This document shows, one piece after another, positions 34,290 through 49,997 of a DNA stretch of 54,398 nt. Numbering within the stretch: the stretch's first letter is position 1; each line of letters starts with the position of its first letter. The stretch covers positions 1-54,398 of the forward strand of contig JBAXXY010000003.1 in NCBI GenBank assembly GCA_037127655.1, read 5' to 3'. A program made the translations under genes and the position numbers. Below the pieces are notes generated by a model. It searched no databases and had not been told where the DNA came from. It was given only the letters and a program-made list of their open reading frames with translations. The stretch comes from Lentisphaerota bacterium (GTDB lineage: Bacteria; Verrucomicrobiota; Lentisphaeria; Victivallales; GWF2-38-69).

Positions 34290-36542
34290 TTACCAGTAGA
34301 AAGGCTTAAAGTGCTTAACAGGCTCAGTAAAGACCCTGAAATCCATTACTGATAGGACATTGGAATAACCATCTGTCCAGGGCCTTATCTTCCTTATCTG
34401 AAACTTCTTATTCTCCTCTTTCCATTGAAGTTTCTGGACGAGTTTGTCTTTGGAGTTTACATCCCATGTGAGCGCGACCCATTGAGAGGCAAGACTGACG
34501 CGGTCTTTTACTGTTTTATTAGAAGTAAGAACTGCGTAGGCATTTAGCATTTTGGCATTACTGAATAAAATTGGTTCAAGATCAAAATACCTATTGCTTA
34601 CATGGAATAAAATTACTCCTTTCGGCGTCAAGTGCTTCCTATATTCTTTGATTGCCTCGACTGTCAGAAGGTGAATTGGCACAGAATCGCCGCTAAAAGC
34701 ATCAACTATTATAAGGTCATATCTATCTAATGGTATAGTTCTCAAGGAAACACGCGCATCTCCAAAGATGTGGTTGATTTTGGCGGGAGAGTTCTTTAGG
34801 AAAGTAAAATAAGAATCAGCAATATTATATACATCGCGGTCAAGTTCAAAAAAATCCATTTCCTGGCCTTCTTTGCCATAGGCCGCCAGTGTCCCAGTAC
34901 CTAATCCTATTACACCTATAGCTTTTGCATTGAATAAATTGCTATTAAAGAATTTTCCGATCGTAGTATCTTTATGGTAGTACGAGAGGGGTTCATTTGC
35001 TTTTTTCTTGTCTAAGTATTGGACGCCATGAAGCGTCGTGCCGTTGAGCAGAACCAGCATATTCTCTGTTTTATAAAGTCTATAAATGCCGTAAAAATTT
35101 CTTGAGCTATATACACTGTCGCCCTCAGACGGCATCCAGTACTTCAAAGGAAACAACGATATTACTAATACTGTTAATAAGCATGCGCACAGCATCCTGG
35201 CTGCTTTAAGGTTCGCAAAAATCCATCTAAAAATAACAGCAATGATAATAATCCCGAAGACATTGTAATGTTCGAAGTACAGAGGCCATATGACAAGAAG
35301 TAATGCTGTATAGACAATTAAACGGTACTGCAAAAATTTATTCTCAGGGTTCTTTTCCTTCCTTGCCATTGCCAGAGTAACCATAAAAAGCCCGAAAAGA
35401 AATTCTGAAGTATTTACAAAAACTAATGGCGCAAGCCATGTCACGAGCATGCTTCCGACAACTCCTCCAAATGAAATTATGAGGTAAAAAGAAGTTAGTC
35501 TTGACTTCTCTTCCGGCCTTGATGTGAAAAGTTGATACTGGCAATACATGCACAGGACAAACAAAATCAGGCCATAGGCGGCTATTTCAATCAGACGAGG
35601 GAAAATCCTCATTTGTGTTAAAAAGAATAGGAGAATCGCAAATCCAAGATGCAGATTGAGATAATTCTTTATCCAGTCAGGGCAAAAGGCTTTTTCCTTA
35701 AAAGTAAATACAAAAGAAAGCAAATAGATGCATAGAGGCATGATCCAGAGAAGTGGGCACGGCGCAATTTCATAGGTGATGATATTGGTAACTGAAAGAA
35801 ATATTACCGACCCTGCAGCTGATAATAAAAACCAGAATATTCCCTGATATGCCTTATTGCTGAATGCTAGGCGACTGGAAGTAATATTTATTTCAAAAGT
35901 TGAATCGTGGCGAGCTTCAAGGTTTCTATTTATCTTGATTAGAAGGAAAGCCGACAGGTAGAACAATAGGAATACTAGATAAGCTGATCTCCAGATAAAA
36001 AGCTGTTCCCTTAGGTCAAAGAGCCATTCAAAAATAAAAGGATAGGTAATCAAAGCGAGAAATGAGCCGGCATTAGAGACGCTGTATAATACGAATGGGT
36101 TGGTTTGCTGAGGAAGGTCGCTGAAAGAAAGCCAGCTTTGAGTAATGACGCTGATTGTAGATAATGCAAAAAAAACTACTCCGATGCTGATGAATAATTG
36201 AAGGAAGATGTCGAAAACTATAGAAATATTATTATTCGCAATAAATTCTGGCAGAGCTCTTCCGGGAAAAAACAGCAAGGGCAAGGCAATCAATATTAAA
36301 TGCAGATATCTGTATTTGAATAAACCTATATTCTTTACGACAATATGAGAGTAAAAGTAACCCAGGAGCAGGACGCATTGGAAGAAAACTACGCAGGAAC
36401 CCCAGACGAGATAACTACCCCCGAATTTGGGTAGGAATATCTTTGATATTATGAGTTCAATCTGAAAAAGCAGAAATGCCGCCAGAAAGGTAACAAGATA
36501 AAATAGATGAACTCTTTTAAACTCAAAACTAAAAGAAAACAT
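34290..36542 (-). CDS. Fused multi-TM / spermidine synthase-like SAM-binding protein
   Basis: LPKFGGSYLVW TM domain; RNFYG, GTTLHG, IGLGTGTLA, GDAR, VDAFSGDSVPIHLLT, WTD. Confidence 0.88.
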   Translation of the reverse strand: MFSFSFEFKRVHLFYLVTFLAAFLLFQIELIISKIFLPKFGGSYLVWGSCVVFFQCVLLLGYFYSHIVVKNIGLFKYRYLHLILIALPLLFFPGRALPEFIANNNISIVFDIFLQLFISIGVVFFALSTISVITQSWLSFSDLPQQTNPFVLYSVSNAGSFLALITYPFIFEWLFDLREQLFIWRSAYLVFLLFYLSAFLLIKINRNLEARHDSTFEINITSSRLAFSNKAYQGIFWFLLSAAGSVIFLSVTNIITYEIAPCPLLWIMPLCIYLLSFVFTFKEKAFCPDWIKNYLNLHLGFAILLFFLTQMRIFPRLIEIAAYGLILFVLCMYCQYQLFTSRPEEKSRLTSFYLIISFGGVVGSMLVTWLAPLVFVNTSEFLFGLFMVTLAMARKEKNPENKFLQYRLIVYTALLLVIWPLYFEHYNVFGIIIIAVIFRWIFANLKAARMLCACLLTVLVISLFPLKYWMPSEGDSVYSSRNFYGIYRLYKTENMLVLLNGTTLHGVQYLDKKKANEPLSYYHKDTTIGKFFNSNLFNAKAIGVIGLGTGTLAAYGKEGQEMDFFELDRDVYNIADSYFTFLKNSPAKINHIFGDARVSLRTIPLDRYDLIIVDAFSGDSVPIHLLTVEAIKEYRKHLTPKGVILFHVSNRYFDLEPILFSNAKMLNAYAVLTSNKTVKDRVSLASQWVALTWDVNSKDKLVQKLQWKEENKKFQIRKIRPWTDGYSNVLSVMDFRVFTEPVKHFKPFYW

Positions 36543-36619: not shown

Positions 36620-37321
36620 TTAGTTCAGCGTTTTGGCGCAATCGTACCAAGTCGGGAAATACTGAGTCTGAGTGCCGCTGGCGTTAACAGCCGACCAGCC
36701 TTTGCCTTTTGTAAATGAAATTCTAGTGTCTCCTCCGCCTTGAGTTTTTACTATTACGAAAATAATGCCTTTGGAATCCTGTAATGGTCCTTTGACCAGT
36801 TTATATGTCGGCCTTTTGTCGTCTTCTTTATCTTTCTTCGGATTAGTTATATCAGAAGTTGTTTTGGCAAGATGAGATATTTGTTGTTTTGAAAATGATT
36901 CATTTTTATCTTTGAGTTTGGCTTCCGTTTTCTGCTTTAAATCCAATGTCATTTTATAGAAATCGCCGATATTGTAATCGGAAATTTTGCCTTGTTTTGC
37001 ACCGGAAGACAAAGCGCGTTGGCACCAGATAAGAGTTTGCCTGTCATCACCTTTTGAAGCTGATTTAGATGCCTCATTATAGCATGAAAGAGTAATGAGT
37101 TCCTGAGCTTTTTCTCTCCATTTCTGGGAGTTGGACGAACTGAGTTTATTGGCAAGAGATAACATTTCAGAAGAATAGAGATAAACTTCTGCGGTGCTCT
37201 TTGGTGAAGCGTTGAAGGCATCAACAATTTTACTATCCAGTTCGTCAAAACTCGATGACTCGCCAAAAAGCGAAAGCGAGGCGCAGATTAAAAGTGCGGT
37301 GAGAACTTTACGGTACGACAT
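36620..37321 (-). CDS. Exported hypothetical protein (last gene of fibre locus)
   Basis: Signal peptide; helical N-region and small beta C-domain; overlaps upstream gene by 14 nt. Confidence 0.7.
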   Translation of the reverse strand: MSYRKVLTALLICASLSLFGESSSFDELDSKIVDAFNASPKSTAEVYLYSSEMLSLANKLSSSNSQKWREKAQELITLSCYNEASKSASKGDDRQTLIWCQRALSSGAKQGKISDYNIGDFYKMTLDLKQKTEAKLKDKNESFSKQQISHLAKTTSDITNPKKDKEDDKRPTYKLVKGPLQDSKGIIFVIVKTQGGGDTRISFTKGKGWSAVNASGTQTQYFPTWYDCAKTLN

Positions 37322-38135
37322 CGATATTGCCTATAATTGGCTCGGCTTTATTGATTTGCTTGCTTTCAGGCTGTTCAGCTGGCTGAGGTTTTCCTTCAAT
37401 TCTCTGAGCAGCTTGACCTTCGGCTTCGAGATATTCTCTATCGAAGTCAACTACTTTTTCTCCTAGCATATCTGATAGGTCTTTCATATTAATGCGAAGT
37501 TTCACTACAGCTATTGCGTCATCGCCTTCGCCTTCCCAGCTGAAACCCATAAATTCAGCGCCCATCAAAGCTCCAATAACGGAGGTTTTGACCTGGTCAG
37601 ACTTAAGCATAAAATTCTCTACGCTCGTATGGCTTTCTAGTGTGAACCCGCCTATTTTTTTATAAAGATTCTTGTAGGCGTCAATTTCTGCTGCTCTCAG
37701 AGCAGCTATTTTTGGAGCATTAGCCGGAGTCGAAGTAGCAAATGCAGTTCTATGAATGACTTTGTCGGGGTATTTCTCGAGATTGAATTTAGCGCTGTCA
37801 ACAAGGTCAGCTATTCTCGATAGTTTTAGAGATGCAGTAACCATCGCTATATCTTTATCCGGGTCATACTTAATTTCATCAAATTCTATTCCGACAATTT
37901 TTCTCTTTCCTGTTTTAGTTTCTGTTGTACCCTGGAAAGTGCCGTCTATGAAATTATCCACCTGTTCATTGTACTTGAGTTTGATGCCGTAAACAGTTTC
38001 TACAATATTTCGTTCAGCCAAAATCTTTGCCGAATTGATTGAATTAAGCTTCTTTCTGGGATCAACTTTAGAGGCTGAAAACATTATTGCGGGGATGATG
38101 GCAAGCGCCACAGCGAACAAAAGTTTGGTTTTCAT
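37308..38135 (-). CDS. Exported protein with two LPP20/FlgP-like domains
   Basis: SAKILAERNIVETVYGIKL and ALRAAEIDAYKNLYKKIGGFTLESHTSVENFMLKSDQVKTSVIGALMGA. Confidence 0.7.
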   Translation of the reverse strand: MKTKLLFAVALAIIPAIMFSASKVDPRKKLNSINSAKILAERNIVETVYGIKLKYNEQVDNFIDGTFQGTTETKTGKRKIVGIEFDEIKYDPDKDIAMVTASLKLSRIADLVDSAKFNLEKYPDKVIHRTAFATSTPANAPKIAALRAAEIDAYKNLYKKIGGFTLESHTSVENFMLKSDQVKTSVIGALMGAEFMGFSWEGEGDDAIAVVKLRINMKDLSDMLGEKVVDFDREYLEAEGQAAQRIEGKPQPAEQPESKQINKAEPIIGNIDVVP

Positions 38136-38557
38136 AGGCTATTTTTATCCTGTAAATTGTTTGAGTTTATATTTTTTGGTTCAGGAGGCAGGACGCTGTC
38201 AATATCAATTTTGAATTTGGTGTCAATTGTCTTAATTACTTTTCCCTGAAGATAGATTATATCATTATTTTTATTGGAAGGCGATGGCTCATACCATCTA
38301 TCTGAATCGTCTATTGGCGAACTTGATACTTCTTTGAGCAGCAGTTCAAACGAGTTGTTGTCTTTTTCAATAAGCCTGGCTTTTACATAGACGCTCTGGT
38401 TATTATAGTTTTCGAGTATTTTGGAGTTTTCCAGAACGGCGTCGTTGAGTTCTTTGAGCTCTTTAACTCTCTGCGAAATAAGATCTTTACTGGCATCGGA
38501 AGCCATTGAAGTAACACAGAGTATTGAAGCAATCAGAAATGTGAGTAAGAGTTTCAT
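38132..38557 (-). CDS. Small exported hypothetical protein
   Basis: Signal peptide (SMA cleavage); ATGA overlap with next gene. Confidence 0.7.
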   Translation of the reverse strand: MKLLLTFLIASILCVTSMASDASKDLISQRVKELKELNDAVLENSKILENYNNQSVYVKARLIEKDNNSFELLLKEVSSSPIDDSDRWYEPSPSNKNNDIIYLQGKVIKTIDTKFKIDIDSVLPPEPKNINSNNLQDKNSL

Positions 38558-38596: not shown

Positions 38597-38608
38597 AGTG
38601 AATTGTGA

Positions 38609-39295
38609 TTAATAACCTAAGTTGATACCGGAATTGGCTTCAGATTCACCCTTGGCTGTGTTGTCTACGCCAGTATTTGTGTTTGTGATAGTAGAGTTTT
38701 TTATCTGGGCATTATTTGCGCTTATGCCGGAGATAACTACTGATTTGCCTTCGGCTATGTTAGTACCGTCAGTATTAGTGTTAGAAATTTCAGATCCACC
38801 TTCGACCGTTGCTTTATTCAAAGATATACCTGAAACAATTAGGGATTCATCTTTTGCATAGTTTTCAACGCCGGTGTTTTCATTGTAAATAGTTGAATCC
38901 TTGATTGTAGATTCATTAGCTTCGATGCCTGATACGATCTTTGACTTATTTGTAGCTTCGTTAACACCATCTTTATTAATATTTGTTATTACGCTTCCGT
39001 CTGTTACTTGAGCCTTGTTAAGCGATATGCCTGATACGATTAGAGACTCATCTTTGGCAGTGTTCTCCATATTCGAATTGGTGTTGTAAATTTCTGAATC
39101 TTTTATTGTCGCGCCGACTGCTTCGATACCAGAATTGATCTTAGATTTGTTTGTAGCTTCGTTAGTAACATCCGTGTTGGTGTTTTCAATGGTCGAGTTT
39201 TCAACTGTGGTGACAGGCGGCAACGCAAACATAGTCGAGGCGGCTAAGGTTGTAGCTAATGCGATTGTGATAAGTTTAGTTTTCATAACACTCAT
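38609..39295 (-). CDS. Secreted 6x 33/34-aa beta-solenoid repeat protein (putative major fibre subunit A2)
   Basis: Signal peptide MFA|LPP, then only repeats SxIxNxNxxxxNxAxxxSxIxSGI; ends NSGINLGY. Confidence 0.8.
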   Translation of the reverse strand: MSVMKTKLITIALATTLAASTMFALPPVTTVENSTIENTNTDVTNEATNKSKINSGIEAVGATIKDSEIYNTNSNMENTAKDESLIVSGISLNKAQVTDGSVITNINKDGVNEATNKSKIVSGIEANESTIKDSTIYNENTGVENYAKDESLIVSGISLNKATVEGGSEISNTNTDGTNIAEGKSVVISGISANNAQIKNSTITNTNTGVDNTAKGESEANSGINLGY

Positions 39296-39320
39296 TCTCC
39301 TTTTAATTATTTGGTTGGGT

Positions 39321-39995
39321 TTAATATCCTAAATTGATGCCTGAATTAATTTCAGATCCGTCTTTTGCAATATTGGTTACACCGGTATTTGTATTTGTGA
39401 TAGTGGAATTCTTTATCTGAGCATTATTGGCGCTTATACCGGAGATAATTACAGATTTATTGGAAGCCTCATTATAAACATCCTTGTTGGTGTTGCTGAT
39501 CGTGGAACCATCTGAAACTTTAGCATTATTTAACGAAATACCTGAAACTATGAGAGATTCATCTTTTGCATAGTTCTCAACGCCGGTATTTTCGTTGGTA
39601 ATAGTGGAATTCTTTATCTCTGCCCCATTAGCTTCAATACCTGAAACTATCTTTGATTTATTTATAGCTTCATTAGTAACATCTCGATTGATGTTTTCAA
39701 TATAACTCCCATCGGTAACCTGAGCTTTGTTAAGAGAAATACCCGATACTATCAAAGACTCATCTTTGGCTGTGTTGGTTACATTTTCATTTGTATTGTA
39801 GATTTCCGAATCTTTTATGGTTGCGCCGACTGCTTCGATACCAGAATTAATTTTAGATTTGTTTGTAGCTTCGTTAGTAACATCTGTGTTGGTGTTTTCA
39901 ATAGTCGAGTTTTCAACTGTGGTGACAGGTAACGCAAACATGGTTGAGGTGGCTAAGGTTGTAGCCAATGTGATTGTGATAAGTTTAGTTTTCAT
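39321..39995 (-). CDS. Secreted 6x 33/34-aa beta-solenoid repeat protein (putative major fibre subunit A1)
   Basis: Close paralogue of 38609..39295 with the same repeats and termini. Confidence 0.8.
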   Translation of the reverse strand: MKTKLITITLATTLATSTMFALPVTTVENSTIENTNTDVTNEATNKSKINSGIEAVGATIKDSEIYNTNENVTNTAKDESLIVSGISLNKAQVTDGSYIENINRDVTNEAINKSKIVSGIEANGAEIKNSTITNENTGVENYAKDESLIVSGISLNNAKVSDGSTISNTNKDVYNEASNKSVIISGISANNAQIKNSTITNTNTGVTNIAKDGSEINSGINLGY

Positions 39996-39999
39996 AATA

Positions 40000-40665
40000 T
40001 TATTCTCCTATATTTATGCCTGTATTGGCTTTGGAATCATCCTTGGTTATTATACTGCTGTTTCCTCCTGCATTGGTAAAGTTGGAGTTCTTTACTGCAG
40101 AATTGGAGATTTTAATACCCGTATTTACCTTTGACTTATTATCGGCCAGAGATTGGGTTTTTCCCACACTACTGGACAATTTTGATTCTTTAATTGTGGA
40201 GCCTTGAGAAACTAGCCCGCTGTTTATTTCTGAGTTGTTTTGAGCTGTATTTGTCACCTTGTCATTGGAATTGTCCAGTTTTGAGGTTTTAATCTCAGAA
40301 TCCTTTATGCTTACGCCTGAAACAATATCTGAGTTGGCATCGGCTTTATTTACTACATCAGTGTTGGCATTGGTTATCTTTGAAGACGCTACTGATGAAT
40401 TCTCAATTTCTATCCCTGTATTGATTTTTGAATTTCCAAGCGCTTCCGAAGAAACATCAGAGTTTGCATTTTTTATTTCTGAAGACTTTACATCTATGTC
40501 ACCTATGGCATTAACGCCGGTATTCACATCCGAAGTATCACTGCTTATCACACTAATATTGTCGGTCTGATTTTCGATGGTTGTAACATCCACGCTGGTT
40601 TCAGGCAAAGCCCAAAGTTGCGCGCCTATAAAAAGCATAAAAGATAATAAAAGAAAACTCTTCAT
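40000..40665 (-). CDS. Secreted 6x ~33-aa repeat protein (divergent minor subunit)
   Basis: Signal LWA|LP; repeats ending (N/V)(T/S)G(I/V/L); ends NTGINIGE; strong AGGAGGAGG RBS. Confidence 0.78.
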   Translation of the reverse strand: MKSFLLLSFMLFIGAQLWALPETSVDVTTIENQTDNISVISSDTSDVNTGVNAIGDIDVKSSEIKNANSDVSSEALGNSKINTGIEIENSSVASSKITNANTDVVNKADANSDIVSGVSIKDSEIKTSKLDNSNDKVTNTAQNNSEINSGLVSQGSTIKESKLSSSVGKTQSLADNKSKVNTGIKISNSAVKNSNFTNAGGNSSIITKDDSKANTGINIGE

Positions 40666-40733
40666 AAGCTTAAACCTCCTCCTTGTCTTTTAGTATTTTA
40701 TATAAGAATTTTTAAAAAAACAATAGGGTTAAA

Positions 40734-42977
40734 TCACTTTCCGAAATTGAACTGTAGGTCTGGCGCCGGTTGTTCATTGTCATCTTTATTGAATTTTGTG
40801 CCCTGATTGACTGTTGACCTGTTTTTAACTGTTGTATTAGCGCCTTGAACCGTATTTGAGATGGTTGCATTAGTAAGTTTCGTGTTATTAGCTTGGACTC
40901 CTGCATTAAGAGTAGAGTTGTCACGGGCAGAAAAAGTGCCTTCGACTTCAGATGTGATATTAGAATCCTTAATTTCAGAATTGTTAGCCGAGAGCCCGGT
41001 ATTTATAGTGGAGTTATTTACTGCTTCGACTTTTCCTTCAGTTCTTGTCGAGATGAAGGATCTCTGTACTGTTGACTGATTTATGCTTACGCCCGTATTA
41101 ATTTTTGAATTTTCTTTGGCAATAGCTTCTACATCTCCTGTGTTTTCTATGTAGGAATCTTCCACTTTGGCATTTACAGCGCTTATGCCGGTATTGATTT
41201 TGGATTTGCCGGTTGCTTCTGAAGAACCTTCGACTGTATTTATGATAGTGCTGTTTTCTATGGTGGTAATAACTCCTCCAGTAGAAGGCGCAAATATTCC
41301 TGTAAACATTCTTCCGCCCTTATCGTAGTTCTCCATGAGTTTTTTCAGCCCTTCTTCGGGAGTCATGCCGTTTGCGAGCTTATGTCCTTTGGCTATAGCG
41401 TCCAGGTACATCTGAATTAGAGCCTTCTTGGCCTGTTCGTCATACTGCCCACTCTTGTAGATATTGGCTTCAATCCATTCCGGAGTGAGTCGGTTAGAGA
41501 CTTCCTTGGCCAGGAAATATGTAATAAGAACGACACCAATTACCGTGCCTGCAACAGGATTAGCTACAAAGATTGCAGTCAATCCATATTGAAGAATTTT
41601 CCCGAAAACAAATGTGTATGCCAGGCTTTTCATTCCTTCATAATAATTGCCTGTTCTATAAGTTTCCGTTACCACATCATAGATCTGAAGCGCCATCAAT
41701 ATTCCGCCGCCCCAGCCTAAACCTCTTTGTATTCTATTTATACTTGGTCCCTTAGAAATCGAATTGTATTTTTGTTCAGACATTTTGAATTTCTCACGGA
41801 TATATCTGTCGGGGGTTCCGAGTTTTAATTTTAGATTTTCTTCGCCGCCAGCCAAATTGCTGAGCTTATCCCATACGCCGAATCTCATCTTCTGTTCATA
41901 GACTGAAACTGTATCTTTCATCTTTGAAAATTTAGAAGCCTGCCCAGTCATATTTTTAAAATCCTTTTCCAGCTGATTCAAAAGGTTCTTTGATTCCATG
42001 CCGACTTTTTCTGCCTGAGCGGCGGTACCCTGTCCCCTTTCAACAGCTTCAGAAACATATTCGGGCAATTTGGTTTTCTGACCAACGCCGTATCTTCCCT
42101 GTGTCAGGTTGTGCACATTCTCTGCTCTGCCCAGGTACTTAGCAGTCAGGTGATTAACTTCCTGTAACTGATTGGTGAGTTTTTCAAGAAGTTCTGCATT
42201 TGGGTGGCCGGGGGGGAAGTTTCCAGTCTTAAGCTGGTTAATCTTTGAGGTTAATTGATCTGCGATTTCGATATTAATTTTTACTTGTGATTTCATTTCA
42301 TTGTGGTAGGCGACAGCCTCATTGAAAGTCATCAGGTTATCCCTTCCAAGTCTTATATATGCTTCAACCCTGGCTGCATCAGGGGATCTATAGGCTCTGC
42401 CGCCGCTTTTATTGATATCTTCTACTACTGGAGCGAAATCCGGGGAGTTCGGAGAAACCATAAAATCAGTTTTGGTGGTTTTAGTCCAATTAGTGCCTTT
42501 TGCCACCGGGACTCCATTTTCAGCGTATAGCTGATCCATTCCTTTGCTGAAATTAGCGGTCTGAGTTTTATAGTCATGGAATGTGGCGGGCTTGCCACCG
42601 GGGCGTTCAATAAATATGTCGTTATCTGCCCATAATTTTTGTTTATAGCTTGTTGATTGTGAAACCTGTTTGGAAACATTCAATCCTGATTGTTCTGCAG
42701 CCCACTTAAATCGTTCCTCAAGTATTTGCTGGGAACTGCTCTGAACTCTCTGAAACGCCTCGTCTGTTATATGCCCGCCATTTCTCAAATTGCTCATTTC
42801 GTCATAGGAAGATAGAAGTTGTAATCTTACCTGCATTAGAGCCTTTGGCGGCAATTTTTCTGAGTAATTTGCAAAATAGTTTGCAAGATCTACAAGACTT
42901 TTATCATACCCTAAGAGTATTACAGGAAGGATTATAGATAGGATAAACGGTGTCAGGTATTTTAGAAATTTTCTCAT
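40734..42977 (-). CDS. Secreted effector-like protein with hydrophobic hairpin and 5 C-terminal fibre repeats
   Basis: Signal peptide; helical N-region; hydrophobic GLGWGGGILMAL...AIFVANPVAGTVIGVVLITYFL; then TTIENSTIINT...SKINTGI repeats. Confidence 0.72.
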   Translation of the reverse strand: MRKFLKYLTPFILSIILPVILLGYDKSLVDLANYFANYSEKLPPKALMQVRLQLLSSYDEMSNLRNGGHITDEAFQRVQSSSQQILEERFKWAAEQSGLNVSKQVSQSTSYKQKLWADNDIFIERPGGKPATFHDYKTQTANFSKGMDQLYAENGVPVAKGTNWTKTTKTDFMVSPNSPDFAPVVEDINKSGGRAYRSPDAARVEAYIRLGRDNLMTFNEAVAYHNEMKSQVKINIEIADQLTSKINQLKTGNFPPGHPNAELLEKLTNQLQEVNHLTAKYLGRAENVHNLTQGRYGVGQKTKLPEYVSEAVERGQGTAAQAEKVGMESKNLLNQLEKDFKNMTGQASKFSKMKDTVSVYEQKMRFGVWDKLSNLAGGEENLKLKLGTPDRYIREKFKMSEQKYNSISKGPSINRIQRGLGWGGGILMALQIYDVVTETYRTGNYYEGMKSLAYTFVFGKILQYGLTAIFVANPVAGTVIGVVLITYFLAKEVSNRLTPEWIEANIYKSGQYDEQAKKALIQMYLDAIAKGHKLANGMTPEEGLKKLMENYDKGGRMFTGIFAPSTGGVITTIENSTIINTVEGSSEATGKSKINTGISAVNAKVEDSYIENTGDVEAIAKENSKINTGVSINQSTVQRSFISTRTEGKVEAVNNSTINTGLSANNSEIKDSNITSEVEGTFSARDNSTLNAGVQANNTKLTNATISNTVQGANTTVKNRSTVNQGTKFNKDDNEQPAPDLQFNFGK

Positions 42978-45900
42978 AACTGCCTGCTATTGACTCCTAG
43001 AACCAGATTAGTATTTTTTTCATTGAGTCTTGTGAGCGGCATCTCTTCCATAAAGGACAACTTATTGGAGGAGTCAAGGGCGATATTACCCGGTTTTTGG
43101 GACTGGGGACCGAAAAGTCTCATTGATTTAAGAAGCACAGGTCCGCCTTCTGAAAAAATAATATTTCCTTTATCGAAACCAATCATTCCGCCATAGAAAG
43201 TATCCACATTGAGATCATCTTGAGTTTTTAAGATTCCAAGGCTGTTAAAACTCCTTGAAGATAGCAGTTTGCCTTTATTGTCCGTGAGGTCAGTTATACT
43301 TCCGAAAACATCACATAGAACATACTGGGGTTTGCCGTTTGGTCTTATGATAGCTAGACAGGTATCAGAGTTTGGGAGATAGATATATCTTGTGAAGCAT
43401 TTGGATTCAGAGTCCCAAGTGGCATATAGATTATCGTAAAGGAAATAATACTTTTTCTGTTTGCTGTCTGCGTCAGCCGTATATATCTGATCTTCGAGTG
43501 GAGCATAGGCGATTGAAAGTTTGGAGTTGGGGCCGAAAGAGATTTCGCTGACTCGGTTATCCCAATCGTAGGAGAGTTCTGTTTTTTTTTCTTTTTCAGA
43601 GAATGATTCGATGGCAGAAGTCTGAGTATAGGCTAGTGCTACTGAGTTAATTTCGGAAAGCAGAGCGGGGGATACTCCTTTGGACTTATTGTTGCCAAGT
43701 TGCATAAGATTTCCCCAGATGTCGAATTTTAAATTGACAGACTTCCCATTCGAATCAGATATTTTCTCGAGATGCCCTAGCGCATCATAGGAGTAGTTAA
43801 CCACAGATCCGTTTGTGTTGATTTCGATGAGATTTCCGACTTTATCGTACTTTAACTTTGAATCTCTTTTGGAGCCGTCAGGGAAGTTTATAATATATTC
43901 TGTTATTCTGTCAATGATGTCATAGTTCCATGTTATTATAATTCCGTTAGGATAAGAGATATTTTTAATCATTCCTGAATCGTAATAGGTGATTTTAAAG
44001 ATGCCCGAATTATCCGAAGAGATTGATGTAATTTTTCCTCCAGTATTTTTACCATATTTTAATGCGAATCCAGACGAGTCTGAGATCTCCTTCGGCATAT
44101 CAATCTGATCATAATTTAGATGAATGGAAAGTTCTTTATTGTAATTCTTCGCCGAGAGCCTGCCGTAATCGTCGTATTCAAAAACCATTCTACAACTGTC
44201 TGTCTGAGCATCTGTTATCTGGAAATGTTTATTAAAAGAGTAAGAAGAGAGTATCTTGTTATTCTTATCTTTAATTGCAAGCGGTTTATGGTTGCTGTCG
44301 AAATAGTAGTTGGTAATAGTTGAGTCAGGGCTTATTCTTGCTATACTCAAATCTTTATTATTAAGAAACAACCAGACCCCAAAAAGACTACTACTGAAAG
44401 AGGAGATGTCATTTTCTTTGGATTGTATATACGACTGATTATCAAATCCGCATAGTTCTACGCTACGGCGAGCCGGCAAACCTTGGTAATCAAATATGGT
44501 TTTTTTCCCGAGAGGGTCAAGTACTTCAGTCGGGAGATTATATTCATCAGTTTTAATACTGGAAGAAGCTCCGTCAGGATAAATGATTTCCAAGCCATCT
44601 TTCATATATCTGTAGCTTGTTGTATTTCCAAGTGAATTGACCGATTTAATTATTCTTCCCTGAGTGTCGTATGTGAAGAGGGTTTCGTTTCCTGAAGCAG
44701 TTGTTGTTTTTTCTAGGAGTGTCCCGTCAAGAGAGTATTGATTTTTTAGGATCTGAATACCGTTATAAATTATTCCTATAATGTTTTTATTGGAATCCCT
44801 TATTATTCCGTTATTTTTGATTTCGGCTACTCTATTGTCATTTGCAAGATCAGAAACTGAAATGATGTCTTTGAAGTATTCGATACCATTTTTGTTCTTT
44901 AGAACTATGTTTCCAAAATCAACATTCATTTGATAAGGGGTGAAGCCCACTAATGAAGCATTTACAGTGAAACTTGCATCTTTGCCAGGTACGATTTCCA
45001 TAGTGTCCCCAGTGATGCTATGTGATTTTCTAATACCTGTTTTTCTGTCAATAGTACCGAAAAGAACTTTGTCGGAGTCAATGGGGCCTTCTTTGATTTC
45101 AACTTTATCTTTTGTATATTTGTATTGAGTTTCAGTGGCTTGCGTAATGTTCCATACATAGACATATGAAGTGTCAGGTTCTTTTTTTGTATCGGAAGAA
45201 TATTCGACATAGATAGTATCGCCTCTAGCGTCATCAATACTTAAAATTTTCCCGTTTTCGTAGTATGAAAGAGCATAATCATGATCTGGTTCTTTTAGTC
45301 TTGAAAGAAGTCCCAAGTCATTGTATTCTAAAAGGTATGAAGTGTTGCCATTTATAAGTATTGATGAAAGGATTGAATCAGTGTAGGAGAATTTGTATTC
45401 TCTATTTGCTTTTATTGCTGAGATTTGCTCTGACAGGTTCCAATCGACTTTAGCATCCTCATTTGAATTTGAATTTGAACCTCCAGTAAGAGAGTTGTCG
45501 ATAGAGAAGGTTTTAACTCTGTCTGATTTAGTTCCCCATCCGGAAATGAGTTTTTGGGGATTGCGTATCATGACTGATACTGAACCTGATTCGTCCTGGA
45601 TTGTTTTGAGGTTTCCTTTATCGTCGAAGGTAAGTTTTTCCCCGATATTGGAGGTGAGCGTGTAGTCGCCATTTATGAATTCAAATTTAGCGCCCAGTCC
45701 TCCTCCTGATTCAAATTTGCCGTCTTCATTCTTGATGAATAAAATCTTGGAGCAGTAAGCGCTGATTGTAAATATTGGCACTTCGTCAGAAAGTTGGAGG
45801 TTTGCGTCTAGCGAAGTTTCCCATTTAGCGCCGACAGAGCCTTTGGATATCTCTGGATTGTATTTAAAGGATAGGGGATACCCCGAGATGTTGAATATTG

Positions 45901-46030
45901 AAAACTGCGCATCAATAGTTCCTGTGGCAGTATTAATCTCGATAGACGCGGGCAGAGACAATGAGAAACTAAAGAGGAGCGCCGATGTCAGCGCTACGAG
46001 TATAAAAAATTTCTTCATTTCTTTATTCAA
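42974..46030 (-). CDS. Sec-exported Rhs/YD-repeat protein with degenerate core and no C-terminal toxin
   Basis: Signal peptide; YDTQGR, YDDYGRL, YDKVGNL, YDALGHL, YDWDNR; core remnant DVFGSITDLTDNKG; ends at PLTRLNEKN. Confidence 0.82.
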   Translation of the reverse strand: MNKEMKKFFILVALTSALLFSFSLSLPASIEINTATGTIDAQFSIFNISGYPLSFKYNPEISKGSVGAKWETSLDANLQLSDEVPIFTISAYCSKILFIKNEDGKFESGGGLGAKFEFINGDYTLTSNIGEKLTFDDKGNLKTIQDESGSVSVMIRNPQKLISGWGTKSDRVKTFSIDNSLTGGSNSNSNEDAKVDWNLSEQISAIKANREYKFSYTDSILSSILINGNTSYLLEYNDLGLLSRLKEPDHDYALSYYENGKILSIDDARGDTIYVEYSSDTKKEPDTSYVYVWNITQATETQYKYTKDKVEIKEGPIDSDKVLFGTIDRKTGIRKSHSITGDTMEIVPGKDASFTVNASLVGFTPYQMNVDFGNIVLKNKNGIEYFKDIISVSDLANDNRVAEIKNNGIIRDSNKNIIGIIYNGIQILKNQYSLDGTLLEKTTTASGNETLFTYDTQGRIIKSVNSLGNTTSYRYMKDGLEIIYPDGASSSIKTDEYNLPTEVLDPLGKKTIFDYQGLPARRSVELCGFDNQSYIQSKENDISSFSSSLFGVWLFLNNKDLSIARISPDSTITNYYFDSNHKPLAIKDKNNKILSSYSFNKHFQITDAQTDSCRMVFEYDDYGRLSAKNYNKELSIHLNYDQIDMPKEISDSSGFALKYGKNTGGKITSISSDNSGIFKITYYDSGMIKNISYPNGIIITWNYDIIDRITEYIINFPDGSKRDSKLKYDKVGNLIEINTNGSVVNYSYDALGHLEKISDSNGKSVNLKFDIWGNLMQLGNNKSKGVSPALLSEINSVALAYTQTSAIESFSEKEKKTELSYDWDNRVSEISFGPNSKLSIAYAPLEDQIYTADADSKQKKYYFLYDNLYATWDSESKCFTRYIYLPNSDTCLAIIRPNGKPQYVLCDVFGSITDLTDNKGKLLSSRSFNSLGILKTQDDLNVDTFYGGMIGFDKGNIIFSEGGPVLLKSMRLFGPQSQKPGNIALDSSNKLSFMEEMPLTRLNEKNTNLVLGVNSRQL

Positions 46031-46073
46031 TAGTTTAAACCGTTAACTAAATTTTATTGAATGTTATTCTAAA

Positions 46074-46131
46074 TGGAGGGACTCAGTCCTCTGAGCCCTA
46101 AATCCTGGTCGAAGTGGACTTAGCCCCTCCC
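46074..46131. repeat. Inverted REP doublet (GGAG foot), intergenic
   Basis: TGGAG-GGACTCAG-TCCT-CTGAGCCC and, inverted, GGGAG-GGGCTAAG-TCCA-CTTCGACC. Confidence 0.65.
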
Positions 46132-46160
46132 AATTTAATTTTAAATTAACATCTCAAAGA

Positions 46161-47504
46161 TTACCAGTCTGTTTCTCCGAAACCTACAGGCGCTTCTTTT
46201 GAGTTAACAGGAGGCTGTTTAGTCTGCTGTTTTGCAGGCTGCTGTTGAGCTTGTTGAGCGATCGGAGGTGGCGGCGGAGCCTGTCTTGTCTGCGCTTGTT
46301 GCTGAGAAGGAGCAGGAGCGCTTTGAACTTGTTGTTGAGGAGCAGGAGCTTTTTGTACTGCTTGCTGTGGCTGTTGTTTAGCAGGTTGAGGTATAGCATT
46401 TAACTGAGGAACTGGTCTATTCTTATAGTCCAGATTGCGTTTTCTGGATTCATCAATAGGGACAGTTTCCCATAGATTGAGGAAGAGGTCGGTATAGTTC
46501 GAAGTTCCGGTCTTTTTCATAGCTTCATTGATCATATCTACATCGCTCTGATTGATTGGAGCTGTCTTATCAATGTTGTAACCATGGAAGAACATGTACT
46601 CTCTAAGGTATGTTATTTTTTCATTATTGCCAAGATAGCTGAACTCTTCTCTAAGTCTTGCCAAAAGGGCTTTGTCTTCGGTGGCGCCAGGAATACATCT
46701 CCAGTAAGGAACATCGAAATACTTACCGAGGGTTTCAAGCGTGCTTATTTCGACAAGCAGTCTGATGCCGTAGTAGATGCCCTGTTGCTTCTTCAGAGTG
46801 TAATCGAATGTCAGACCACAACCTTCAAAGAATGCACCGATACCCCATCCAAGTTTGGTTTTTCTGATGTTGATAGAGTTTGATACCTGGGAACTTGCAA
46901 TTGCAGATTGTGTTTTATAGTCCAGTAAACTAAGGTCGAAAGACATACGGGAAACTGATTCTTCTGCATTGTATCCCATGCTTCCATCGTATTGGGAGCT
47001 CGACCCCCACTGACCTTTCTCGACTCCGCCTTCAGCCTTGAGTTCTCTGGCCTTTTCAATCAGATCTTTATCAAACTCTGTAATTCCGCCAGTCATTACG
47101 AGTTGGGGCAATGCCCTATTTATAGAACCGCCAGTAGTGGCTTCATTTATGATGTAGTTAGGATCGTATGGTAAATAGATAACTCTTGTGCCGATTTTAT
47201 TAATTGCAGTGGCAAGCATTTTTGACACATCGTCGGGGAGTGTTTTGTCGGCGGTATCGTTAGTTATTACCTTGCTCTGTACTTTGACCGGGTTTATATC
47301 GTAGGCTTCAAGGAGTTTCCCAAACTGCCTGAGAGAATCATCATATCGGGTTAATTGTGCCTGAGCCTGGCTCATAGACGCATCCAGATCCTTTACTTCT
47401 TCATCACTTACATCTCCAGCGAACCAACGGAAGATACTGCATCCTGAACCGAGCAGTAATATGCTTGCTATTGAAGACAAATAAAATAATTTCCTTAATT
47501 TCAT
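46161..47504 (-). CDS. CsgG/HfaB-like outer-membrane lipoprotein with Pro/Gln-rich tail
   Basis: Lipobox GSGC; MTGGITEFDKD, SFDLSLLDYKT, IRLLVEISTLETLGKYFDVPYWRC; start 47504 behind GGAGG. Confidence 0.7.
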   Translation of the reverse strand: MKLRKLFYLSSIASILLLGSGCSIFRWFAGDVSDEEVKDLDASMSQAQAQLTRYDDSLRQFGKLLEAYDINPVKVQSKVITNDTADKTLPDDVSKMLATAINKIGTRVIYLPYDPNYIINEATTGGSINRALPQLVMTGGITEFDKDLIEKARELKAEGGVEKGQWGSSSQYDGSMGYNAEESVSRMSFDLSLLDYKTQSAIASSQVSNSINIRKTKLGWGIGAFFEGCGLTFDYTLKKQQGIYYGIRLLVEISTLETLGKYFDVPYWRCIPGATEDKALLARLREEFSYLGNNEKITYLREYMFFHGYNIDKTAPINQSDVDMINEAMKKTGTSNYTDLFLNLWETVPIDESRKRNLDYKNRPVPQLNAIPQPAKQQPQQAVQKAPAPQQQVQSAPAPSQQQAQTRQAPPPPPIAQQAQQQPAKQQTKQPPVNSKEAPVGFGETDW

Positions 47505-47537
47505 GAAACCTCCGAACTTATTTATAACCATAAATTG

Positions 47538-49133
47538 TTAATTATTGCCACCTGACCAGTCTTCTTCGGAAAGGTCAGTTATTCCTGTAGGATTTTTATC
47601 CTTAACTATTTTTTCCACCTTAATTACCATACCAGTAGAGTACAGATCTCCTGTTTTGAGGGATTGAGCTTTTTGATATTCTTCAAGAGCCGCGCTGTAG
47701 TTCTGGGTATTATATGCATCATCGCCTTTGGCTATGGCTTCTTTGTAAGCTTTGTCCATATTTACTATTGACTCCATCAGCGACTTGGTTCTAGCTAGCT
47801 GGTCTGTAGCATATTGGTCTTTAGGGATATATCCCAGGGCTTCGTTATATTTATTGTAAGCATTGGCCAAGTCTCCTTCGGTGTAATATTTATCGCCTTG
47901 GGTTACTGCCGTTTCGTATTTACCTTTATTTATTTCTAGCTGCCTGACCATCTCAGATTGTTTCTGCTGTTGGAGTTTCTGTTTTTCCAGAGCCTGTTCT
48001 CTTTCTTGAGCTTCTCTTTTCTTCTGATCTCGCTGCTGTTTTTTTCTGTCTTTGGATATTATGGCCGTAGATTTATCCATTGGGAGATTTTCCCAGACAG
48101 CTATAAAGAGTGACGGGTAATCGTTAACTCCATATATCTTCATCTGGCTTGAGAAAACAGCCTGCTCGGATGGAGAAAGAGTATCACTTGCTTTGTCTAT
48201 ACCGGTAAATCCGCTCAGGTATAGATATTTCTTGATATATCTGATTTGTCTTCCGGTCGGCATAGTTTCGATATTGTCCTTGAGCCTTGTTACCATCGTC
48301 TTATCTGTAGAAGCGCCTTTTATGCACTTCCAGTAGGGAACGGAGAAATATTTGCCAAGGAGTTCGACAGTGCTTAACTCCACAAGGAATCTAAGAGCGG
48401 CATAAATGCCCTGCTTTGTTTTAACTTCAGACTCAAATGATGCGCTGAAGTCCATGTATGAGGCTGAGACAGCCCATCCAAGTCTGTCTTGCCTTATAAC
48501 GATGGCATTTGAAGCAAGGACTCCAGGGAAAAATGACTGGGTTTTGTAACTTCTCATATTCAAATCGAGAGTGATTCTAGAGACATTCATTCCGGCGCTG
48601 TATCTTGCGCTTGCTGATGCTCCTGCCCAGCCGCCTGCGATATCTCCTTCGCGTTCTTTCTGAATCAGGTCTTTATCTACGCCTGTTATTCCGCCTGAAA
48701 TTACGGCATCGGGATAAATTCTCTGTATTGTTCCGCCTGTGGTAGCCTCATTTATTATATATTGTGTGTCGTAAGGAACGAAGACAACTTCTCTGCCTAC
48801 CTTATTAATAGCAGTTGAAAGCATTACATAAAGGTCATTCGGGACTCCTTTGTCCGCTGTCTCATTGCCAATATTCTGGCTTTGGATCGGAGTAGGGGCT
48901 ATATCGTAAGCTATAAGCATCTGTCCAAGATTTATAAGAGCCTCGTCCATGATCGTTTCTCTTTTAAAAGCCTGCATCTGGTCGTCGAGTTCCTTAACTT
49001 CCTTGTCATCAACTTTGCCTTGAATCCATCCGCATGAACTTAATAATAATATTAAAGCTACTGCGACTAATCCTTTTAATCCCATCATCTTCCAGTTCCT
49101 ATACTTTTCGCTATTCACTTTTAATTTTTTCAC
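47538..49133 (-). CDS. CsgG/HfaB-like outer-membrane lipoprotein with coiled coil and TPR-like tail
   Basis: Lipobox LSSC; ISGGITGVDKD, TLDLNMRSYKT, LRFLVELSTVELLGKYFSVPYWKC; two GDxxY...A...Y..A TPR-like units; true start may be a slightly downstream ATG. Confidence 0.7.
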   Translation of the reverse strand: MKKLKVNSEKYRNWKMMGLKGLVAVALILLLSSCGWIQGKVDDKEVKELDDQMQAFKRETIMDEALINLGQMLIAYDIAPTPIQSQNIGNETADKGVPNDLYVMLSTAINKVGREVVFVPYDTQYIINEATTGGTIQRIYPDAVISGGITGVDKDLIQKEREGDIAGGWAGASASARYSAGMNVSRITLDLNMRSYKTQSFFPGVLASNAIVIRQDRLGWAVSASYMDFSASFESEVKTKQGIYAALRFLVELSTVELLGKYFSVPYWKCIKGASTDKTMVTRLKDNIETMPTGRQIRYIKKYLYLSGFTGIDKASDTLSPSEQAVFSSQMKIYGVNDYPSLFIAVWENLPMDKSTAIISKDRKKQQRDQKKREAQEREQALEKQKLQQQKQSEMVRQLEINKGKYETAVTQGDKYYTEGDLANAYNKYNEALGYIPKDQYATDQLARTKSLMESIVNMDKAYKEAIAKGDDAYNTQNYSAALEEYQKAQSLKTGDLYSTGMVIKVEKIVKDKNPTGITDLSEEDWSGGNN

Positions 49134-49997
49134 TTATTCTATATATGTATTGACTTTCTTTACCTTGCTATTTTTATCTATAACTGTATTTCCTACATCG
49201 CTATTTCCTCTGCCTTTTTCGGCAGCTTTTCTTTCATTCTTGTTCACATAATTATATTTTGTACCGTCAGGAGCAACTCCACCTTCATCATCGTAATATT
49301 TGGCCATATGCTTTGTTTTTGCAGTTTGCCCGACTTTGCCGCCTTTTCCTATGGTAGTATTTACTTCTCTGACATTATCGCTATTGATAACTACATTGCC
49401 TATTCCGCCTGACTCGCCGACAGTCGCTCCGCCTGGAGTTACTGTAGCTTTGCCGCCGCTTACATATACGCTGCCGATACTTACAGCCTTATTCTTTGCG
49501 TTGACAGCCGTACTTACATTGGTAGTAATTTTCTTATTTTCAATATCACCTTTAACCGCGCCGACATCCACAGTGGAGTTCTGAGCGTTGATTGTGGCAT
49601 TAACATTTGTTGAAATTTCAGAATTTTTAATGCTTGAAGCTGATACGCCAGTAGTGACACTTGAAGAGCTCGCGTCGATATTTACATTGGAACTTGTCGA
49701 TACTGAAGAGTTTCTGATGGTAGCGCCTCCTGCGTTCAATCCGGTATTTACCCTGGATCCGTTTCTGGCAGTAACACTTCCGCTTGTATCATTTGTGATA
49801 ATAGCGTTATTGATATTGGCTGTAGGGATATTTATGCCTGTATTTATTTTAGAATTATCTGTAGCGGTAAAATCGCCGCTGACAGTATTGGTGATGATAG
49901 CGTTCTGTACCGTGGCTCCGGCGCCGCTGCTGGGTGGGAGGGCAAGAACTAAACTGCAAATGGAAAACAAGACAAAAAGAGACAATACCTTAAACAT
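49134..49997 (-). CDS. Secreted repeat protein with degenerating repeats and charged tail (putative nucleator/anchor)
   Basis: Signal VLA|LPP; NAIITNT...DNSKINTGI repeats, then a Lys-rich non-repeat C-terminus. Confidence 0.72.
   Translation of the reverse strand: MFKVLSLFVLFSICSLVLALPPSSGAGATVQNAIITNTVSGDFTATDNSKINTGINIPTANINNAIITNDTSGSVTARNGSRVNTGLNAGGATIRNSSVSTSSNVNIDASSSSVTTGVSASSIKNSEISTNVNATINAQNSTVDVGAVKGDIENKKITTNVSTAVNAKNKAVSIGSVYVSGGKATVTPGGATVGESGGIGNVVINSDNVREVNTTIGKGGKVGQTAKTKHMAKYYDDEGGVAPDGTKYNYVNKNERKAAEKGRGNSDVGNTVIDKNSKVKKVNTYIE

Follow-up and report, generated by a model that had tools for sequence, protein, structure and literature searches.

A putative fibre locus of Victivallales with an optional cassette for an RHS protein and a subunit-tailed protein with a predicted nucleotidyltransferase-type head

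The locus and the modules of T747

We analysed a stretch of 54,398 nucleotides (the window; contig JBAXXY010000003.1 of assembly GCA_037127655.1) from a Lentisphaerota bacterium, a free-living freshwater relative in the Victivallales. From position 49997 down to 36620, the minus strand carries a run of genes for p287, two lipoproteins of 531 and 456 residues, an RHS protein of 1018 residues (RHS1018), a protein of 747 residues (T747), the repeat proteins S221, S224 and S228, and p141, p275 and p233. The repeat proteins are predicted to form a fibre and are referred to as its subunits. Our subject is T747, which together with RHS1018 constitutes a two-gene cassette in an optional slot of this conserved Victivallales fibre locus. 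T747 combines a head with a predicted nucleotidyltransferase (NTase)-type core, a hydrophobic region and a tail that resembles a fibre subunit. The gene and its parts are as follows; hydropathy is given on the Kyte-Doolittle (KD) scale.

40734..42977, minus strand: T747, 747 residues, with head, hydrophobic region and fibre-type tail; open reading frame with an ATG start
42906..42977, minus strand: N-terminal hydrophobic segment, residues 1-24; KD up to 2.14 over residues 3-32, modelled helix at residues 2-20
42342..42770, minus strand: predicted NTase-type alpha/beta core, residues 70-212, from the model and structural matches
42618..42626, minus strand: D118-N-D120 (DND), an invariant DxD where strand 2 begins, from conservation and the modelled strand 119-125
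42465..42467, minus strand: D171 in TDFM, the strand-3 member of the carboxylate triad; at least 90% conserved, modelled strand 170-173
41778..42341, minus strand: predicted helical bundle, residues 213-400, with near-invariant K280, Y281, R284 and R314; model helices 218-250, 259-296, 316-346 and 349-375
41505..41723, minus strand: Gly-rich hydrophobic three-helix region, residues 419-491, with an invariant polar loop YDV..E.Y.TGNY..G and an ANP turn
41283..41492, minus strand: post-hairpin linker domain, residues 496-565, with conserved NYDKGG..F.G.F.P.TG; 53-69% identity among orthologues
40737..41282, minus strand: fibre-subunit-like tail of five 32-residue repeats and a short C-terminal end ...LQFNFGK; similar to the subunits

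A preliminary description of this open reading frame had proposed a non-repeat head fused to a fibre-subunit-like tail, and all of its landmarks were placed correctly. The non-repeat part, put at about 560 residues, counts 565. WADNDIFI occupies residues 116-123 (42609-42632, against an earlier estimate of about 42615-42630), and the Gly-rich hydrophobic stretch GLGWGGG...VLITYFLAKE occupies residues 419-492 (41502-41723, against about 41505-41725). TTIENSTIIN, which opens the repeats, is found at residues 571-580 (41238-41267), and the five copies of the repeat are 32-residue units spanning residues 566-725.

The tail is strongly periodic, with an autocorrelation of 1.21 at lag 32 and 1.05 at lag 64, compared with a maximum of 0.47 in 500 shuffles. 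It is 42% identical to S224 over 167 residues (E 6e-23), and the alignment starts at S224 residue 24, directly past the N-terminal hydrophobic leader of S224 and at its presumed mature N-terminus. Matches to S221 (E 4e-16) and p287 (E 3e-10) were also found. The similarity to S224 and S221 bears out the proposed fusion. Tested against S224, T747 is a minor protein that shares the subunit repeats, and its tail is, by sequence, a near-complete copy of a fibre subunit. None of the 747 residues of T747 is a Cys; the subunits also have none and the orthologues 0-1, against a background of 1.05% in the window's other open reading frames. Proteins that traverse the outer membrane in an unfolded state typically lack Cys. 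The N-terminal segment of T747 is probably a Sec signal or a signal anchor.

The hydrophobic region is conserved and rich in Gly, Ala and Thr; it contains 14.9% Gly, compared with 7.9% in T747 overall. It consists of three helix-length stretches with mean KD values of 1.08, 0.98 and 1.91 and a tight VANP turn, and KD in a 19-residue window exceeds 1.4 only at residues 464-494, besides the N-terminal residues 3-32. Gly-zipper Pfam families gave no profile match over this region of T747; two relatives (P0020 and P0110) match Gly-zipper_Omp at E-values of 0.4-0.55 only, and one GxxxG (G477-G481) can be read by eye in T747. The likeness to colicin-type segments that had been suggested for this region finds no support other than the hydrophobic helical hairpin as such; Pfam gives no match, and the structural match to colicin Ia (Z 7.0) spans residues 216-298, not the hairpin. 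Together with matches to TcA toxin shells (Z 9.0, 8.0 and 7.1), it belongs to a set of helical-bundle matches over residues 209-347 that fell below the search tool's caution level for helical matches and were not used.

One explanation for these modules is that T747 is the base or nucleator of the fibre. The hairpin would sit in the inner or outer membrane of the producer, the tail would seed or tether the fibre, and the head would be a periplasmic accessory. A tail that copies the subunit is found in nucleators, and helix c of the window's T747 reaches a KD of 1.91. In addition, weak YceG-like matches (E about 7e-4) lie just after the hairpin in two distant relatives, one of the 69 Pfam-scanned members of the head family described below and a protein in the genome G026; they serve as a lead only. 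YceG/MltG is anchored in the inner membrane. However, mean KD in helices b and c of the orthologues is only 0.9-1.4, a moderate hydrophobicity that is too weak for typical stop-transfer and argues against retention in the inner membrane. In its complete absence of Cys, T747 also resembles the secreted subunits.

Fold and family of the head

AlphaFold2 models were obtained for residues 1-400 (predicted local distance difference test score, pLDDT, 92.7; predicted template modelling score, pTM, 0.87) and for residues 70-212 of the head only (pLDDT 95.0). The modelled core runs through a helix (72-96), two strands (100-103 and 119-125), a helix (133-153) and a further strand (170-173) before the long helices begin. 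In NTases of the Pol-beta type, strand 2 of the alpha/beta core bears [DE]x[DE] and strand 3 a third carboxylate. The same pattern is seen in the model of T747, with D118-N-D120 on strand 2 and D171 on strand 3.

Structural searches lean towards the same superfamily, although every score is middling by the standard of the search tool. Pol-beta-type NTases, classified by us from the entry titles, filled 18 of the 25 top rows in a wide VIA search with the core (best Z 6.3) and 47 of 50 rows in a second look with pdb_via (best Z 6.7). With the long model the best Foldseek rows were GlnE domains, terminal uridylyltransferases, DrrA and CdnE; with the core they were polymerases mu, lambda and beta. 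Two aminoglycoside-type entries align with both domains of the long model: ANT(3'')(9) (7uy4_A; residues 75..344, Z 7.2, root-mean-square deviation 4.1, 186 of 258 residues) and AadA (6fzb_A; Z 6.3, 193 residues aligned). We favour an NTase-type assignment because one superfamily fills the match lists and the invariant carboxylates fall on the expected strands. The high-confidence models therefore suggest that the head consists of a Pol-beta-type core followed by a helical bundle, with the carboxylate triad D118/D120/D171 kept. A restriction-endonuclease-fold toxin (Atlas score 0.83, TM up to 0.37, model pLDDT 0.46) was also considered, and was rejected for the NTase matches of the AlphaFold models.

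The preliminary description had loosely compared DND with the DxD of NTases and had proposed a structural comparison of the N-terminal domains. The former stands at the level of fold and motif, since DND is invariant and lies in an NTase-type core model, but no profile match accompanies it. The latter gave match lists dominated by NTase-like rows, while Foldseek returned nothing at E<=1e-3 with either model (best E 0.046). Several points speak against membership in the superfamily, one of them the glycine motif, which Pol-beta-type NTases have as hG[GS] some 10-15 residues before the DxD. In the family of T747 it is displaced, the consensus being PGTDxD, in which G-T immediately precedes the first Asp; T747 itself has W-A at this position. 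A conserved G98...Q104 lies upstream of the T747 DxD.

T747 belongs to no family in Pfam or NCBIfam, and a search of PDB sequences with the head profile gave no match. A word-based search found only five close homologues, the orthologues P0002-P0006; with a profile, 1.84 billion representatives yielded 252 proteins at E<=1e-3. This unannotated family, which has no Pfam match, spans T747 residues 30-350. Among the matches listed, the best 150 of the 252, nearly all align to profile positions of about 1-350 at their own N-terminus, and the proteins are about 140 to 2915 residues long, most of them 600 to 2900. None of 32 matches scanned with Pfam has a family over the head; 18 have nothing at all, and 14 carry C-terminal PKD, FecR, TPR, LamG, CarboxypepD_reg or other domains. 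PPC domains also occur in members of the family. Head, hydrophobic region and repeat tail are combined in only 11 of 153 proteins in the set examined, and a hydrophobic segment precedes the head domain in 117 of 151 members. Ten family proteins that were looked up are unnamed or hypothetical, and one cluster member comes from a Lentisphaerae metagenome-assembled genome (MAG). The head domain is present in 9 of 401 genomes searched in the phylum, and a scan of metagenome contigs found no relative.

Two members stand outside fibre loci. In G101 (L032 7336-13873), a protein with Pfam CsgG and fn3 domains is encoded directly upstream of a head-family protein. In G026 (L035 7003-13687), an RHS gene (Pfam 6.9e-45) lies directly upstream of a gene for a protein with head and hairpin, with a BamE-domain protein downstream of the latter and a PATR-repeat protein before the RHS gene.

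Conservation within the family is concentrated on a small set of residues. D118, D120 and Y196 are invariant in an alignment of 100 sequences, and D118 and D120 are also invariant in 147 of 147 sequences. At least 90% conserved in the 100 sequences are N62, Q79, G116, T117, D171, M173, F181, N189 and A195 in the first part of the head and Y224, E227, M228, K280, Y281, R284 and R314 further on. The window's T747 keeps D118, D120, D171, Y196, K280, Y281, R284 and R314.

This pattern bears on two further explanations. The head could be a non-catalytic adhesin, a binding module on an old enzyme fold that is displayed like the lectin domain at a pilus tip. The near-invariant G116 and T117 are replaced in T747, and 5 of 6 orthologues lack G116; rapid divergence of the head would be expected for a ligand-binding domain at the surface; and the PKD, LamG and PPC domains of other family members are binding domains. 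Pure binding, however, does not explain why eight residues (D118, D120, D171, Y196, K280, Y281, R284 and R314) are kept despite head identities of 30-36%, and we consider this explanation highly improbable.

Alternatively, the head could be an active transferase that works outside the cytoplasm, where it would modify the subunits, the wall or a polysaccharide, and the tail would localise it to the fibre. Active-site-like conservation over at least 100 family members is consistent with such an envelope or matrix enzyme, as are the possible export signal formed by the N-terminal hydrophobic segment in 117 of 151 members, the envelope genes that adjoin the family in G101 (CsgG and fn3) and G026 (BamE domain), and the richness of the subunits in Ser, Thr and Asn. 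Against it, nucleotide donors are not known to occur outside the cytoplasm, the roles of the hairpin and of the RHS partner are left unexplained, and the modification would be dispensable, since T747 is optional. We regard this possibility as quite unlikely.

An optional cassette in a conserved locus

The other genes of the locus are the following.

42974..46030, minus strand: RHS/YD-repeat protein, 1018 residues, the cassette partner; Pfam RHS_repeat 1.4e-25, PDB Rhs proteins 1.8e-23
46161..49133, minus strand: two paralogous lipoproteins (456 and 531 residues), the core of the locus, kept in every fibre locus examined
49134..49997, minus strand: p287, the gene that opens the operon; its repeat protein ends in a distinct C-terminal domain
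38609..40665, minus strand: fibre subunit genes S221, S224 and S228, with 0 Cys in each product
36620..38557, minus strand: p141, p275 and p233, accessory genes conserved by synteny, with N-terminal hydrophobic leaders

The ATG of T747 overlaps the stop codon of the RHS gene by 4 nucleotides (ATGA), which suggests that the two genes are translationally coupled. Loci with the two lipoproteins and subunits were surveyed in other genomes of the order. Ten loci were informative; an eleventh, L045, ends too early for the slot to be scored. In four of the ten (the window, L001, L036 in G298 and L037 in G064), the RHS gene and T747 follow the second lipoprotein gene and precede the first subunit gene. 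In five (L038, L041, L043, L044 and L046) the slot is empty and a subunit gene directly follows the lipoprotein gene, and in L047 it is filled by an unrelated open reading frame of 702 residues without a Pfam family. The RHS gene is present in 4 of 4 loci with T747 and absent where T747 is absent. Within a single genus, G298 has the cassette and G373 has none, and the genome G085 of the same genus, 95% complete, gave no match at all. T747 is optional and is therefore not a core part of the fibre. The preliminary description had proposed that the repeat serves as a secretion or co-polymerisation tag, and an optional gene fits tagged cargo better than a core fibre base.

The 702-residue protein of L047 (4141-6249, in G238) has an N-terminal hydrophobic leader and ends in ...LPFGK, compared with ...FNFGK in T747; the shared ...FGK may be a common C-terminal signal or chance. 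RHS1018 also has an N-terminal hydrophobic leader. Read by eye, it ends shortly past the last YD repeats and has no C-terminal toxin domain. Its identity to its counterparts is 57% in L001, 35% in L037 and 29% in L036, a faster divergence than that of the core genes. The T747-like protein of G064 (L037 8073-10613, 846 residues) ends in a p287-type module that is 57% identical to p287, and no p287-like open reading frame was found before the lipoprotein genes on that contig. Judged by sequence, this is a natural fusion that links the T747-like protein with p287 in the manner of a Rosetta stone.

Within the cassette, divergence is unevenly distributed. Between the window and L001, identity is 36% for the head, 57% for the RHS protein, 82% for the tail and 66-88% for the remaining genes of the locus. 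Across the five orthologues, it rises from 30-36% in the head through 40-51% in the hydrophobic region and 53-69% in the post-hairpin region to 70-86% in the tail, so the head diverges much faster than the tail. A word-based search with the tail among longer proteins recovered only these five orthologues, all with the same head family. The idea that variable N-termini are exchanged on a constant repeat tail was thus not borne out, since no other head was found on a T747 tail; the converse was seen, a conserved head family on a wide range of C-termini.

These observations can be set against the base or nucleator explanation introduced above. T747 occurs as a single copy per locus, immediately upstream of the subunits, its hairpin and post-hairpin region are better conserved than its head, and the fusion in G064 joins it to a module of p287, a core gene whose product may itself be a nucleator; all three suit a base. 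The explanation is weakened by the slot, which is empty in 5 of 10 informative loci and holds an unrelated gene in one, indicating that the fibre system does not need T747, and the rate of evolution of the head and the RHS protein is about double that of the core genes. On balance we find a role as base or nucleator rather unlikely.

The locus as a whole recurs in the order. A conserved Victivallales locus comprises p287, two paralogous lipoproteins, 1-3 repeat subunits, p141, p275 and p233, and often one further subunit. Subunit length varies from 161 to 376 residues across the loci and is set by repeat number. In L001, from a Victivallales MAG, gene order is identical to that of the window. 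The T747 orthologue there has a one-base frameshift in the tail at GKSK/INTG (about 11750-11760), with the remaining repeats intact in another frame, which may be either a sequencing error or a real break. Synteny of p141, p275 and p233 is seen in L001, L036, L037, L038, L041, L043 and L047, and their leaders suggest that they are probably exported. Apart from the RHS protein, no protein of the locus (p287, the lipoproteins, T747, the subunits, p141, p275 and p233) has a Pfam or NCBIfam family. No curlin-type Pfam family was found for S221, S224, S228, p287 or the T747 tail, whose repeat is 32 residues long. A search of PDB sequences gave nothing for the 456-residue lipoprotein or the subunit profile.

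Several further observations concern the surroundings of the locus. The gene at 50494-52380 (plus strand), divergent from the operon, codes for an FGE-sulfatase domain (2.7e-45) to which part of a CsgG/TolB_N/LpoB-like domain is fused at the N-terminus (Pfam CsgG 7.2e-08, covering profile positions 39-103 of 210), and a counterpart adjoins the locus in L001 (581-2530, minus strand). Next to it, at 52439-54397 (plus strand) and running off the window, is a gene for a multi-PAS histidine kinase that may regulate the locus. On the downstream side, 34290-36542 (minus strand) lies close to the locus and encodes a 750-residue membrane protein with a C-terminal spermidine-synthase-like domain that matches the NCBIfam model for fused major facilitator superfamily (MFS)/spermidine synthase proteins (3.5e-14). 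Near-identical copies of the region 38600-47600 occur in freshwater and lake metagenome runs of several studies, with no RNA run listed among them; contigs from four DNA runs matched the window almost exactly, leaving no variation that could be used. We found no published paper on the fibre locus or the head family.

A proposed role for T747 and its relation to known systems

We tentatively favour the view that T747 is an accessory minor subunit that caps one end of the fibre and displays an enzyme and a membrane-active hairpin with an effector-like purpose, while granting that the alternatives together carry at least as much weight. T747 would be exported via Sec, and its subunit-like tail would take the outer-membrane route of the subunits and stack onto one fibre end. 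The bulky head would be located on the N-terminal face of the tail. With the head in this place T747 could only cap a fibre end, and the end would therefore display an enzyme beside a membrane-active hairpin. The hairpin may engage the membrane of another cell, where the head would act, and the RHS partner may assist or act with it. We know of no nucleotide donor outside the cytoplasm, and for an exported NTase without an obvious extracellular supply of nucleoside triphosphates an effector-like purpose is the most economical. An effector-like role is favoured because of this missing donor, the RHS partner, the gain and loss of the cassette at the level of the genus and the pattern of divergence. 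The proposal as a whole is also supported by the RHS gene that directly precedes a gene for head and hairpin in G026, outside fibre loci, by the fusion with a p287-type module in G064, by the lack of Cys and by the modest hydrophobicity of the orthologue helices.

A number of points weigh against this proposal. The structural scores of the head are middling (best Z 7.2), Foldseek passed no row at its threshold, and none of 69 family members matches a Pfam NTase family at E<=1. The G116-T117 pair that is near-invariant in the family is W-A in T747 and G116 is lost in most orthologues, so that the head may be a pseudo-enzyme. Helix c of the window's T747, with its KD of 1.91, is hydrophobic enough for stop-transfer in the inner membrane. 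The FecR and TPR domains of other head-family members would suit the periplasm. No immunity-like gene follows T747; the subunit genes come next. The fibre itself is a prediction from the sequences of the repeat proteins.

The secretion route is a further weak point. The lipoproteins are possibly CsgG-like, which we treat as a lead only. The feature neighbours of the lipoproteins in the Atlas include clusters with CsgG and PG_binding (0.90), and 3 of 77 lipoprotein homologues are named CsgG by JGI. Pfam CsgG gave no match to the 456- and 531-residue lipoproteins at E<=10, an hhalign comparison of the lipoprotein profile with a CsgG-domain protein was negative, and a Pfam CsgG search of the organism's own genome matched the gene at 50494-52380, not the lipoproteins.

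A more specific form of the proposal, which we judge unlikely, is that the cassette is a fibre-borne contact weapon in which the tail docks a self-translocating protein resembling an AB toxin at the distal end of an amyloid-like fibre. On touching a cell, the hairpin would insert, and the head would enter and nucleotidylate a target. If this were true, the head family of 252 representatives, with its PKD, LamG, FecR and PPC tails, would be an extensive, unrecognised class of enzyme-headed proteins with interchangeable targeting tails. If the favoured proposal holds, T747 would be an example from nature of a bacterial fibre that displays a functional protein fused to its own subunit; to our knowledge, such display with curli has been achieved only by engineering. 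The analysis also brings out an unannotated family with a predicted NTase-type fold, mostly behind an N-terminal hydrophobic leader and without a Pfam or NCBIfam model, an RHS protein paired with a separately encoded enzyme-fold protein instead of its own toxin, and a conserved, uncharacterised Victivallales fibre locus with an exchangeable cargo slot.

By the features we compared, T747 belongs to none of the known systems considered here, except in part to the NTase fold superfamily. Tip adhesins of the FimH type in chaperone-usher pili have a functional head and a subunit-like domain, and can enter the polymer at one end only. T747 likewise has a head fused to a subunit-like domain. It shows no relation to these adhesins in sequence or fold, and differs in its beta-repeat fibre, its enzyme-type head and the hydrophobic hairpin between head and tail. 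In curli, CsgB is the minor subunit and nucleator, and the secretion route is formed by CsgG, CsgE and CsgF. Like CsgB, T747 shares the repeats of the major subunit, lipoproteins and small leader-bearing proteins are encoded alongside, and the subunits are Cys-free; the T747 locus has no Pfam curlin or CsgG match, however, its repeat is 32 residues long, and T747 itself has a 565-residue head and is optional. The curli components CsgA, CsgE and CsgG are treated in PMC6050966.

The head resembles ANT(3'')(9)/AadA (PDB 7uy4 and 6fzb) in having an NTase core followed by a helical domain. Identity is 8-10% and there is no profile match; moreover, the T747 family has an unusual G-T directly before the DxD, and the T747 head follows an N-terminal hydrophobic segment inside a larger protein. 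NTase-fold-related toxin domains of the RelA/SpoT type are known in Rhs polymorphic toxin systems (PMC3482391). RHS1018 is a true relative of the Rhs/YD-shell toxins (PDB 8h8a, 8qjb and others), and the cassette evolves quickly, with gain or loss at the genus level. Here, in contrast, the enzyme fold forms the N-terminus of the separate, leader-bearing T747 rather than the C-terminus of the RHS protein, and no immunity gene is seen.

PMC5380434 describes the Cdz system of Caulobacter, in which membrane-active proteins of the Gly-zipper type are held on the surface of the producer in amyloid-like aggregates and act on contact. Small size, type I secretion and an accompanying immunity protein set the Cdz proteins apart from T747, which is large and has a Sec-type leader and an enzyme-type head. 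T747 shows no detectable homology to AB toxins, and the likeness to them is architectural only. AB-type toxins carry enzyme, translocation and binding parts in that order. The modules of T747 follow a similar order, with a DxD enzyme-fold head, a helical region with the hydrophobic hairpin and C-terminal repeats. The logic of T747 is thus familiar from known systems, while its parts and their combination are new.

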